Shown piece after piece: positions 22,099 to 30,447 of a DNA stretch of 64,000 bases; the stretch's first letter is position 1; each line of letters starts with the position of its first letter. Source of the stretch: Octopus vulgaris (lineage: Eukaryota); the NCBI GenBank assembly GCA_951406725.2, contig OX597841.1:27280001-27344000 (forward strand). The letters run 5' to 3'. The translations under genes were made by a program, and so were the position numbers. The notes under the pieces were generated by a model. The model had not been told where the DNA came from. It did not search any database and saw nothing but the letters and a program-made list of their open reading frames with translations.

Positions 22099-22586
22099 AC
22101 GAGATATAGAATAAGGGGAGGAGATGTAAGAGTGCTTTTTATTATAATTGTGTGTGTACATGTATATTTGTGTGTGTGTATGTATTATATATATATATAT
22201 ATATACTTAATAAATAGGGTTCAGCAAAGAGATTTGCTTTACCACATACCGAAGTTTAGAAATAGCAGCCAAAAAACGTTAGCTATTTCTTCTACTTTAA
22301 AAAAAGGGACTCCCAGAAAAACCAAAATATTTGAAAACAATCACACAGGCAGAGAGGAATATATATATATATATACACACACATACATACATGTATGTAT
22401 GTTGCCACGATAAGCTGAAATTGTAAATCGTGGATCTATTGGCTGTGTATATATTAACTACACTTACATTCATAAACATACGTATGTCGATGCAAAATGA
22501 AAACCAGTTTCACACACACACATACATACATTACGTGTGTGTGTAGTATTAAGCGTATATTATATATCATATACACACACTATTTT

Positions 22587-22625
<39 letters not shown>

Positions 22626-22746
22626 TTAAAGTTTCACGGCAAGACTTTAAAGCATAAAGTTTTAACTCCAAATTTATCCCTCCATTTCAAATACTCTATT
22701 TTGTTGTGTATACACACATTATATATATATATATATATATATATAT

Positions 22747-22930
22747 ACTTAGAAGAAATAGCTAAGATTTTTTGGCTGCTATTTCTAAACTTCGGTATGT
22801 GGTAAAGCAAATCTTTGCTGAACCCTTATTAATAAGTATTACTTAAGTTTACCGTGAAATGGTCCTTTTTTTTCAAACCGAATTCTACTTTGTGAAATTA
22901 TTGATTACTCCTTAATTAATTCTACCCTTT
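22747..22930 (-). mobile_element. Structured (TA)n-embedded element, variant 3
   Basis: Inverted partial copy at 22204-22298 and another copy at 46326-46512; multi-helix fold described in findings. Confidence 0.6.
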
Positions 22931-23056
22931 GTTACTATATATATATATATATATATATAACGGGAAGCTTTATGAAAATAAACAAAAGACGAAGGCAGGT
23001 GGAGTACAAACAAACAATTGTATTAGTATGGCGCTCAGGAATAGAAATAAAACAAG

Positions 23057-23095
23057 TCCTTTACGTTTCGAGCCTACGCTCTTCAACAGAAAGAT
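23057..23095 (-). ncRNA. Minimal hammerhead-like motif in a (TA)n-flanked fragment (22959-23163)
   Basis: UCUUU CUGUUGA A GAGC guag GCUC GAAACGUA AAGGA; core has an A6-to-U variant. Confidence 0.6.
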
Positions 23096-23162
23096 ACACA
23101 GAAACGAAACACGGAGAAAAACAAGGAGAGAAAAAAATGCGTGTAGGAGCTAGCGAATCAAC

Positions 23163-23255
<93 letters not shown>

Positions 23256-23936
23256 TCATTTCTAGTTTGATTCCTTTATAATAAATAATACAATTTAGTC
23301 TGTCAGCAAGCGACAATGATGGTTTAAATAAGATATGTGACTAAATTATAAAATAAATAAATAAATAAAAAGCGAATCCTTTTATCTTCTTCCACTGCCA
23401 TTATCCCCTAATAAGGGTTTGGAAGGATGATGGCAGGGAAGCCGGGGGTGAAGAGAGGAAGAGACAGAGAGAGACAGAGAGAGAGAGAGAGAACTACACT
23501 AACACCTAGAAAAATTTTGATTCCGAACACAGTGACCTTACGGTGGAAATGCTAAGGAAAGACTCCTACACTACCATCCATCTCTCTTCTCTCTCTCTCT
23601 ATCTTTAATTTATCTGGAGACTGCCACCAACCACTAACAACAACAACAGCTCCCACAATCATATAACCACTTCTACTACTACTACAACAACCACCAACAC
23701 CACCATCACCACCACGATGATCGTTATTAGATTCAAGCATCACCACCATCAGTATCACCACAGGCATCAACTATCAACGCTACTACTATTACTACCACCA
23801 CCACCACCACAATGACTCTAGCTACAGCTATTGCTACTACTACCTATACAAGCACCATCACCATCACATCCTATAATTACCAGTACAACCATCAAAACAC
23901 CAATTCCAACAATAAGTAAACCACTTTCACGTGTGT

Positions 23937-23968
<32 letters not shown>

Positions 23969-24041
23969 CATATATACACACACACACACGTTTTATATAT
24001 ATATATGATATACACACACATATATATATATATACACACGT

Positions 24042-24072
<31 letters not shown>

Positions 24073-24278
24073 ATGTGTGTGTGTGTAACTATATATATAT
24101 ATATATATATGTGTATAATATATATATACACACACACAAATACAGGCGATAAATGTACACACACACACACACACATATATATGCCTACATACACACAAAT
24201 ACACACGCAATATCAATATGTGAGTGTACAAATATACACATAATATACATACATACTCGTCTGTTCGTGTGTGTATGA

Positions 24279-24317
<39 letters not shown>

Positions 24318-24335
24318 AACAGACGAGTATGTATG

Positions 24336-24368
<33 letters not shown>

Positions 24369-26360: not shown

Positions 26361-27351
26361 ATATATATATATATAAGATTAATCAGCCGAAATTACTACG
26401 ATGATCCGGTTCTTGACTGAAGACTGAGGGTTTCGAATGTCCTGTCCGTGTTTATTGTATCGTCTTCTAAGAGTTATACGTTCTTGTCCATGTTGTATTT
26501 TTCTACATACCTTAATATATATATATATATATATATATTTGGCAAAAAAAAAAATAATAAAATGGCCATCCCGAAATACAGTATATAGTGATCATATACT
26601 TATTTGTGCTCGTAAAATGTGCGTCTATACATACATATATATATATATTTATATATATGCACACCATAAGCACCCGTGTCTTATCTATCAGCCCTTCATA
26701 TGAAACAAAATTCAAGCTTTTTTCCCCCATATCTTTTAACCCCCTTTTGCCAAGAATACAAGCAAGGATCGCGGGCTGATGTTGGTGGGTGGGGGGGACA
26801 CAGTGTGGGAAAGGCTCGGATTGCTAATATTTATATTTTTATAAACATATATACACACACACACACACACACATATGTGTGTGTATATAAATTAACAGGA
26901 GCCACAAAAGAGATTTGGCAAAAGCATCGCAGCATTTCACTTGCAGATGAAAATAAACAAGCCCAGTTATCGAATATCTTGTTTTATTCCAGCTAAATAT
27001 AATCACCATAAATATAAACATGTGTGTGTTGGTGTATATATGTATATATATGCGTACACACGTGCACGAGTGTCAGCTCTGACTGAGGAAAGCGTTATGA
27101 TCGAAAGGGATTCAAGCCCACAACAACCCACTTTTGTTTGTTTCTTTCAGTCATATATACCCGTATATAAATAGTATCCAATGTCCCCTTAAAAATAATA
27201 ATGAAATTTTTAAAAATAACAAAGGCTGAGTTATAGTCTGAGGATTTGCCTGCTGTTTCTAGCAGATTCAAAGTCCACACACGAATACCTTTGTCGACAC
27301 TTACATACACTTTCATATATATATATATAAATATAAATATATATATATATT

Positions 27352-27462
27352 TCACACACCCACAAGGGGTTAAACACAGAGGGGACAAACAAGGACAGGC
27401 AAAGGGATTAAGTCGATTACATCGACCCCAGTGCGTAACTGGTACTTAATTTATCGACCCCC

Positions 27463-27516
<54 letters not shown>

Positions 27517-27648
27517 CTTTACTACACACAAGGGGCTAAACACAGAGGGGACAAACAAAGGGATTAAGTTGATTACATAGACCCCAGTGCGTAACTTAAT
27601 TTATCGACCCCGAAAGGATGAAAGGCAAAGACGACCTCGGCGGAATTT
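27352..27648 (-). mobile_element. SINE family B fragments
   Basis: Two partial body units split by (TA)n. Confidence 0.8.
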
Positions 27649-28340
27649 TATTTATATATATATATATATATCACACAAAGTTTGTGTAATAATAAATTAA
27701 AGGCGGCGGCTTCCACTTTCTTCTCTGCCACCTCCTCTCTCTTCTCCTCTTGCTATCATCATCATCATCATCATCATCAACAACATCAACAACCCACAGT
27801 TGAAATTTCAAAATGTAATGTATGTATGTATGTGTGTGTGTCTGTGTGTATAGATTATGCTTGCTTTAGCAAAGAAACTGTTTTCAAACCAGTCTTTTCA
27901 AAGTAGCTAGCACATGGCTTTAATGACGGATTACCAGAGCCAGTCACTTCAGAGAGAGACCAGAGTAAATAAAAGCAATATTCACCGAAATTCTGTATCG
28001 AAATCGGCAAGCACTGACTAAACTCATAAACAAACACAGCGCCAGTTTCTCTTTACCAAATTACGCAGTTACAAATATTCACACGCACACACACTCTTTT
28101 TTAAACATATACACACGCACACATCTTAATTCATAGAAACAGAAATTTTGGTATTTCTGACTAAAAGTTCCCCCCATTACAAATTTCAATAGATTAAGGC
28201 TATGGAAGTCCATATAGAACAAAAATTGAGGAATGTATGTATATACGACGGATATTATATATATATATAGATACATGATATACGATGTATAACACGCGAG
28301 TATACGTGTGTGTGTGTGTGGGTATATATGTATGTATATG

Positions 28341-28387
<47 letters not shown>

Positions 28388-28515
28388 ATATAATAATTTA
28401 ATAATTAAAACATATACATACATACATATATGTACATACCTACATCTATATGTATATATACATGCATATATGAGTACAGGACACCACAAATACACGTAGA
28501 ACACAACGAGAAACG

Positions 28516-28556
<41 letters not shown>

Positions 28557-28585
28557 TACATACATATATATATACATATATATAT

Positions 28586-28640
<55 letters not shown>

Positions 28641-30225
28641 AAGTACGTTTATACACAACTACGTACATATTATGTACGTGTATGGTAAAATATGTATGCA
28701 CATATGTGTGTATATTATACACACACACATTCACAAACTCTTACTTAGCCCGGATCCAAGCAGATCCACCATAATCTAATACTTTCCGTTACAAATATGA
28801 CCACCCATCCTCTGTGCTATTCAGTAGTTTCACAAATCCAATACCCGTTACCCATACGTTTTTCAAAGACCAAAGTGTATGATCTGTAATCTGAGGTAGA
28901 TTTAGCTGTTATTTTCAGCACCCGAAATTTCTCCTAACTTAGCACAGTTAAAGGGGGCGGAGGTGCTAAAGGATAAGACCGATTAAAATAAATTGAACCC
29001 TAAAATTGCTGATAGTTTACCCGATCTGTCGGAGATGGGGGTAGTCGGTGTATCAGTAAATCCAGTGGGATTTGTGAGAAAGAGACTAATTATGAATGGC
29101 TCTCTAAGATTTGCGCCAACAGAGTCGACGTGACAGTCACGACTGGAATGAATACCTTTGCTAAAAACCGGGTCCAGCTGACTTGGGAGCTAAATAGTAA
29201 TCAACAAAATAATGGGTCGTTCGACCTGCTAGAAACGATAACCAAATTTCAATCGAATCACATCCTACTGTCATTTAAATTAAGGGGGGAATAATAAAGA
29301 GGCGGGGAACGTCCATTTGAGATTCAGATACTGCAACTATTAAAAACGTGATGGCCACGGCTGGAATGTCAATTTATAAATCAAAAGCAACAACAACAAA
29401 AAAACTAGAATAGTGCAGTTTTCTTCCATCCATGGTGGAGAAATTGTGGTGATTGATTGCTGACAGCCCAGATCCAGCAAATTCATGATATAAAAGACAC
29501 TGCCAACCGTGGCCACAACATTTGTAGATTCAAAAAAATACGTGATTTCGTTTTGGGTCTTCTTTTTTTTAAGGCACTGAGATATATGCGTCGGAATAGG
29601 TGGAGGTTAGGTTGCTATTTCTTGCAACCGAAGTAAACCATCTAAAGATTCTTTCGCTGGCGGCGGTTGGTTGGTTGGTGGTTGTTAGCAGTAGTAACCA
29701 ACCTGATCGATCAAACCCGATTCGAGGCGCTCCAACCATGACAGTCTCTGTGTGTGTATGTGGTGTGAACTAGCCGGGCTGTTTTGCTACCGAGACAGAA
29801 TTTGTAAAAAGAGCAAGTTGGTTAATTAACCAGGTTTTAGCACACACACAATATATATATATATATATATATATATACTGATAGGGCACAGAAAGTGTGT
29901 CTATAGCCAGCTGGAGGAGGTGTCCTCCTGGGGCTACAAACTACAGTAGCATTCACCCTTAGGGGTTAGCCATATTCAAATGGCAAATATACGTCACTAT
30001 ATATATATATATATATCTATATATATATATATATATAAAAGCGGTAAGGCGGAACTCGGGAGTCACAAGGGCGTAAAAAATTTCATATTTTTTCCCTATA
30101 TATTTTAAATATGTTATAACATTGAACACTTTTTCCTGGCAGTTATTTACATAGGGACATATATTTATTTAGCGAGAATTGGAAAAGAAATTAAATTACA
30201 CATACACCCAAATACAACACACACA

Positions 30226-30276
<51 letters not shown>

Positions 30277-30284
<8 letters not shown>

Positions 30285-30445
30285 TAAGGGTAGAAATCAA
30301 TATTTATCAATTAAAACCAGTGGTCTAGCATATTAAAAAGAATCCGAAGATTAAAATATTAATATATACCAATTGAGGGACTGAACACGAAAAGTGGACA
30401 GTCAACATGCTAGATATAGACGTCAAATCGCCATTCTCCACAAAA

Positions 30446-30447
<2 letters not shown>
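30277..30447 (+). mobile_element. Structured (TA)n-embedded element, variant 1
   Basis: Flanked by (TA)n on both sides; starts AAGGGTAGAA; TCTAGCAT/ATGCTAGA long-range stem. Confidence 0.65.

Follow-up and report, generated by a model that had tools for sequence, protein, structure and literature searches.

The window analysed here, 64,000 nt of Octopus vulgaris contig OX597841.1 (assembly GCA_951406725.2, positions 27,280,001 to 27,344,000), contains six copies of repeats that an earlier sequence-only reading had described as three variants (v1, v2 and v3) of a 170-190-nt element sharing one multi-helix fold. All six copies were found where that reading had placed them, with the listed arms of helices P1, P2 and P3 present in the sequence, and the three variants are indeed homologous, each representing a high-copy family (1122, 2138 and 2385 first-look genome candidates for v1, v2 and v3, respectively). 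Rather than elements of 170-190 nt, however, the window repeats are the 3' ends, shortened from the 5' side, of tandemly repeated non-coding units that measure 480-575 nt. The reading we favour, at a probability of roughly 0.6, is that these units share a covarying multi-helix fold arranged around two fixed end points, and that this fold likely docks a Penelope-type reverse transcriptase.

Window copies and the units they derive from

The copies and their predicted parts are given below, where unit positions are counted from the hammerhead cut, sites 1 and 2 denote the inner and outer fixed ends, and bit scores refer to model R1.

30277..30447, minus: v1 single-arm insertion in (TA)n, unit about +76 to about +250, ending at site 2; 69.8 bits
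30324..30414, minus: v1 core, with P1 (30324-30331 with 30407-30414) enclosing P2, site 1 and P3
30341-30352, minus: v1 P2, with a C-UUCG-G loop on the minus strand
about 30369, minus: v1 site 1, within the P1 loop
30379-30403, minus: v1 P3, within the P1 loop
30289..30318, minus: v1 terminal hairpin P5, with a GGU/ACC base; site 2 lies about 12 nt beyond
30419-30432, minus: v1 P4 hairpin, within the part 30419..30441
30438-30441, minus: 5' strand of v1 P0, pairing with 30320-30323
25528..25745: v1b two-armed insertion, with a long minus-strand arm running to site 2 (about 25528) and a short inverted plus-strand arm running to site 1 (about 25734)
26168..26360, minus: v2 single-arm insertion, unit about +82 to site 2 (about +270); 96.7 bits
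26186-26231, minus: v2 P5
26233-26237 with 26352-26356, minus: v2 P0
26238-26246 with 26320-26328, minus: v2 P1, enclosing P2 (26256-26268) and P3b (26301-26313)
22747..22935, plus: v3 arm, unit about +100 to site 2 (about +285); 90.8 bits
22754-22786, plus: P4 of this v3 arm, followed by P1 (from 22791, closing at 22882), P3 (22801-22824), P2 (22851-22863) and P5 (22892-22926)
22204..22359, minus: v3 arm ending at site 1, unit about +36 to +183
46304..46519, plus: v3c arm ending at site 2; 96.3 bits
46326-46330 with 46467-46471, plus: v3c P0, with P1 at 46368-46377 with 46456-46465 and P5 at 46473-46508

None of these copies reaches the hammerhead. Closer inspection altered several details of the first description: the CCATT proposed as the v1 P0 partner overlaps P4, and the predicted fold uses CCAC at 30438-30441 instead, while the copy given as 22204-22298 runs to 22359. 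Two inverted pairs had also been proposed, of which 25528-25745 stands as the only clear two-armed insertion among the window copies. The 22204 and 22747 copies are probably separate insertions, since they are 92% alike and lie about 390 nt apart, whereas adjacent v3 arms elsewhere are 91-99% alike (above 94% in 14 of 15). Isolated exact matches of 15-19 nt to the v3 P4 arm also occur outside full copies (15105-15122, 47539-47555, 57774-57788 and 63771-63787), and may be ends of a related repeat.

For v1, v2 and v3 the best 40 candidates per family were scored, with 91-98% identity apart from the window copy. In the orientation first read, the AGGGT end is fixed and the opposite end is scattered. 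Longer copies extend into tandem units of 505 nt (v1), 535 nt (v2) and 573 nt (v3), as well as 483 nt in v5, a further family met in the flanks. Upstream of the fold, the longer copies of every family examined (v1, v2, v3, v5, v1b and one v4 locus) carry a type I hammerhead core. In the v1, v2, v3 and v5 units it consists of a stem I of five pairs, the motifs CUGAnGA and GAAA, and a loop III that is palindromic (CTGATCAG, CAATTG, CGCGCG, CCTTGCAGGG), in agreement with the type I hammerheads described for metazoans in the available text of PMC4209133, whose loop III is likewise palindromic. In v1, v3 and v5 folding reproduces the hammerhead stems that such a core should have; v2 has an imperfect stem II base, and stem I covaries in v1b. 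As in retrozymes of the non-LTR kind (LTR, long terminal repeat), the units are non-coding, below 45% GC (0.23-0.35 in the fold domain), and arranged in tandem with a type I hammerhead each. Because each unit carries this minimal hammerhead, the elements are classed as Penelope-type retrozymes, predicted to be self-cleaving, and not as hammerhead-less Naiads. The link to Penelope-like elements made by the sequence-only reading is supported; its Naiad-like, hammerhead-less framing is not, given the type I core. An ATG at the v1/v2 unit junction was also considered as the remnant of a reading frame and rejected, as it meets stops within 5-10 codons and is not found in v3 or v5.

Several related sequences were encountered. 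The v1 family also occurs, with TA-flanked ends falling at the identical inner site, in contigs from runs that carry the labels of other organisms (B, C and D). A divergent family, v3f (L025:190-1070), has a tandem unit of about 645 nt with a hammerhead-like core, and its P1 loop contains one more hairpin. A short TA-inserted family (L007:1190-1400, L023:1207-1300), possibly a miniature relative without P1, ends in a small GGTG/CACC hairpin plus CTT and has the v3 GGCTGCTATTT motif. The ends of other TA-inserted repeats (L028:1713, L089:1454, L132:2845, L057:1866) read TTTGCCCT(C/T)ATTT, resembling the ACCCT end, and show little or no match to model R1.

Architecture and covariation of the fold

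Consensus sequences of v1 (41 copies), v2 (38), v3 (34), v5 (27), v2e (8) and v3d (4) were folded separately on the hammerhead strand. Each of the six folds contains P1, P3 and P5; P0, P4 and P2 are present in most but not all, with displacement of P0 and P2 in the v1 consensus. Tandem copies also show an enclosing helix, PE, in which the sequence before P0 pairs with the sequence just past the outer end. PE is formed by different letters in v2, v3, v5 and v3f (pairing probability 0.86-0.98) and was also recovered in v1. The families that were folded have the long terminal hairpin P5, whose closing pairs are GGU/ACC. The predicted order along the RNA is hammerhead cut, U-rich linker, PE, P0, P4, P1 (enclosing P3a/P3b, site 1 and P2), P0', P5, site 2 and PE', which adds three helices (P4, P5 and PE) missed by the first description.

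The claim that the variants share this fold through compensatory changes holds for P1, beyond chance, and for P3a; P2 is weak. Alignments were built from sequence only, with ends trimmed around the helix for tests of P1. Across 18 rows, 93.1% of 131 P1 cells are paired, with change on both sides in 7 of 8 pairs, and covariation reaches 0.642 against 0.325 in shuffled alignments, a value of 0.642 being attained by none of 500 shuffles. Slid P1 controls are 22-53% paired with covariation of 0.04-0.19, and in a 14-row alignment P1 is 94.4% paired. As a control preserving relatedness, P1 was compared with all 10,440 nine-pair registers in the same alignment and found to be the best; on a tree built without the helix columns, it requires at least 15 independent Watson-Crick swaps. 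P3a is 89.3% paired, with double change in 3 of 4 pairs. Furthermore, of 2785 variable column pairs, 19 reach 90% canonical pairing or more and show two Watson-Crick types, and 7 of these 19 fall in P1 or P3a. Some helices were affected by registration: MAFFT misregistered v3 P1 in alignment A2, and in A3 and A4 it did so for the rows of v4, which were excluded from A5 and from model R1 (14 rows).

The functional strand can be assigned to the hammerhead strand, the reverse complement of the one first read; the latter is ruled out as the RNA by the hammerhead, the polarity of truncation and the G-U bias. On the hammerhead strand, P1 contains 14 G-U against 3 A-C cells in 17 family rows (kept from A6, which has 40 rows, so as to represent each family or subfamily about once), and all five changes in the nine-pair core of P1 between close families keep pairing. 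Folding z-scores of single copies (-1.6 to -4.6) do not separate the strands, and the hammerhead strand is lower in energy in 5 of 7 cases, single-sequence energies alone not being decisive for strand.

Two fixed ends and the proposed priming platform

Insertion ends were compared across 114 loci picked as best full-length matches, so that the prevalence of main arms ending at site 2 partly reflects query selection. An adjacent inverted arm, as in the 5'-truncation footprint of endonuclease-positive (EN+) Penelope-like elements, occurs in 69 of the 114 loci. Sixty-three of these 69 inverted arms end at inner site 1, main arms mostly end at outer site 2, and of 183 arm ends 152 lie directly against TA-rich DNA. 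Numbered from the hammerhead cut, the template is last uniquely matched at +157 and +250 in v1, with modal TA microhomology of 8 and 6 nt, and at +183 and +285 in v3 (3 nt at both); site 2 lies at +270 in v2 (4 nt) and +233 in v5 (2 nt). The spacing between sites corresponds to a tail present at one end only, of 93 nt in v1, 102 nt in v3, about 100-110 in v2 and about 85-100 in v5, outside the 30-40 bp of the EN+ footprint. Site 1 lies in the P1 loop between P3 and P2, and site 2 between P5 and the enclosing strand; where resolved, each follows a helix by 8-17 nt and then a C-U-Y-A-U-like run. The two start modules are alike in 5.1 of 7 letters against a background of 3.5; their likeness within families (5.14) compared with that between families (4.84 of 7) does not show concerted evolution.

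The 5' ends bear on the template. No overall pile-up at the hammerhead cut was observed (about 6 of 69 inverted arms end within 10 nt of it, with some clustering in v5), and 27 of 114 main arms are longer than one unit; the template is therefore probably an uncleaved multimer or circle. Arms of one insertion share variants in 108 of 170 cases, compared with 234 of 2155 between insertions, and among 63 insertions the inverted arm reaches further 5' in 17, the main arm in 31 and both equally in 15. At one junction of two v3 arms (L079:1790-2531), a 24-nt unit built from element pieces near P4 and the hammerhead cut is repeated 30.9 times, which looks like reiterative template jumping.

By analogy with the green anole Poseidon element, the fold likely serves as a docking and start-site platform for a Penelope reverse transcriptase that primes on both cut strands. 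According to the available text of PMC11167929, the anole protein cuts and extends both strands of AT-rich DNA in vitro, starts at two internal RNA sites matching the genomic tail, and requires RNA 3' of both starts. Hammerhead cleavage is dispensable for it, and a dimer is predicted for the protein. In the octopus, a GIY-YIG endonuclease supplied in trans would nick both strands of (TA)n, and each nicked 3' end would anneal by a few bases to one start site. Both complementary DNAs (cDNAs) would then extend towards the RNA 5' end and halt at variable points, and their joining would leave two arms placed head-to-head, of which a single one would have the 90-110-nt tail; tandem copies may result from read-through past the hammerhead on an uncleaved multimer or circle. 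The conserved domain would thus bind the protein and position the starts, serving each target strand once and most likely doing so on one RNA. More tentatively, and with odds clearly below even, one RNA may offer two helix-plus-C-U-Y-A-U modules, the first following P3a and the second P5, with each half of a dimeric reverse transcriptase receiving one of them, such that a single template would prime both target strands.

A protein partner was sought among sampled families, a small part of the genome's Penelope copies, and none was found there. Three candidates were rejected for lack of the fold: an intact 781-codon Neptune-like family, a young C-rich family, and an old family with a C-terminal endonuclease. 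Two apparent fusions of element and frame (L101 and L041) proved to be nested insertions. The Neptune-like family (L181-L190) has two fixed ends of its own, separated by 38 nt and showing TA microhomology, as well as an inverted arm and a second, upstream reading frame starting about 25 nt after the outer end. The young C-rich, Neptune-like family (L243-L252) has open frames of up to 1214 codons, 4.47-kb tandems and a hammerhead-like core reading CTGTTGA; its 3' end, compared by eye, occurs in the window at 22959-23165 and also ends in (TA)n.

A number of observations weigh against a reverse transcriptase platform. Model R1 matched bystander copies only in 93 loci and nothing in 10 more, yielding no autonomous carrier, and no copy was contiguous with a Penelope frame (255 hits, 151 loci). 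P2 is the least supported helix at 40-50% paired and P5 is 74-78% paired, in family alignments that misregister them, and both are without clean column-level covariation; from alignment A3, which is gappy, RNAalifold derived no consensus structure. Comparison of four pairs of close families showed 46 changed base pairs among those predicted, 14 of them to G-U type, 5 to Watson-Crick and 8 to A-C, with 19 broken and no double Watson-Crick swap. The broken and A-C pairs, and the absence of double swaps, indicate that the peripheral helices are labile; the fold has a conserved core and a labile periphery. Site 1 is scattered in v2 and not resolvable in v5, and many junctions could not be aligned. 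Finally, Poseidon initiation is reported, in the text available of PMC11167929, not to be homologous to the cut DNA, unlike the microhomology seen here, and the shared variants and unequal arms are also compatible with fold-back copying followed by deletion.

An unlikely, though the strongest, rival is that the fold is kept for stability, circularisation or transport of the retrozyme RNA, and that the ends are set only by TA-rich single-stranded patches annealing to the nicked target. TA microhomology and a high AT content mark both sites, extensive self-pairing is predicted for retrozyme circles (available text of PMC7229834), and the autonomous Neptune-like family produces its two ends without the fold. 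Despite sequence divergence, however, the sites hold the same place relative to the helices in v1, v2, v3 and v5, and both follow a helix and the similar run noted above. Less probable again is that self-priming or fold-back, perhaps with an antisense strand as template, gave rise to the inverted arms, with subsequent loss of the palindrome centre and a fold serving one priming event. Antisense self-priming has been hypothesised (PMC3846280, in the portion available), arms share private variants, and the 15 insertions of equal 5' reach would suit it; the other 48 of 63 are unequal in both directions, the two arms have different fixed 3' ends, and both hammerhead and G-U bias mark the sense strand.

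Very improbable, in our estimate, is that the fold constitutes another ribozyme, as yet undescribed, with cut sites at the fixed ends or close to them. A multi-way junction with covarying helices could house one, and fixed ends could be its cut sites, but few loop letters are invariant (invariant columns number 3 of 249 in A2 and 13 of 164 in A5, six of the latter in the last 16 columns), the ends fall in variable AT-rich patches, a hammerhead is already present, and Poseidon makes equivalent ends through internal initiation (available text of PMC11167929). A second ribozyme is unnecessary to explain anything seen. Between the alternatives left by the first description, "ribozyme or RT-recognition signal" (RT, reverse transcriptase), a recognition signal is the best reading of the modelled fold.

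Relation to known elements

The element class is known; the new part is a cross-family fold tied to two ends. Metazoan non-LTR retrozymes, as presented in the available parts of PMC7229834 and bioRxiv 10.64898/2026.07.22.740005, are likewise non-coding AT-rich tandem units with a type I hammerhead each and proposed Penelope derivatives, and the unit lengths here fall within the reported 51-972 bp. The folds published in those parts are whole-circle energy folds only, and a cross-family domain outside the hammerhead, fixed start sites and a two-armed footprint are not described there. A further difference is that no parent was found here, in that no match to the pseudo-long terminal repeat (pLTR) of an autonomous Penelope-like element was detected in the families sampled, with thousands of candidates unscored. 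In the second of these sources, 1 of 9 Xenopus dimers was cleaved.

Poseidon PAc of the green anole resembles the octopus units in having two fixed reverse-transcription starts downstream of a hammerhead and an AT-rich target, and the footprint here is consistent with extension of both strands, the RNA 3' of the starts being required in PAc. In the available text of PMC11167929, however, PAc starts lie inside the reading frame, where a stem loop rich in AC contains them; they are spaced by about 30-40 nt and have no target homology, whereas here they lie about 90-110 nt apart on a non-coding RNA, with 2-8 nt of microhomology and a covarying multi-helix domain. EN+ Penelope-like insertions share 5' truncation, partial tandems, an adjacent inverted truncated copy, a one-end tail and (TA)n targets; the tail here is about three times the 30-40 bp described, and a coding region is absent (PMC8557442 and PMC3846280, parts available). 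The (TA)n preference, inverted arms and tail also recall the Naiad clade, but Naiads are without canonical hammerheads (available text of PMC8557442), and the type I core carried by these units rules out Naiad identity.

As the sequence-only reading had anticipated, no described Rfam family matches the fold. In the window, Rfam identified a single tRNA-like sequence (54380-54451, 38 bits) and nothing on the domain; on seven unit loci (E up to 1) there were 152 matches, and the 150 shown were all below gathering, mostly to microsatellite-type microRNA models. No description of the fold was found in the literature covered, which lay outside subscription papers and Repbase.

These results address an open question, namely how Penelope-like elements, the closest retrotransposon relatives of telomerase (available text of PMC8557442), choose their RNA and produce insertions with a tail and an inverted arm. 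The mapping of Poseidon starts in PMC11167929, in the text available, only bracketed the binding region. Since a non-coding parasite must keep its cis signal and little else, a fold conserved across such units points to that signal. If the two-site platform reading is correct, it would for the first time provide a structural model, backed by covariation, for the element through which a Penelope RNA is recognised and its copying initiated, and would explain the long-puzzling tail and inverted arm. The families described here supply natural compensatory variants together with exact start sites, so that a short mutational test would become possible once the partner protein is found.

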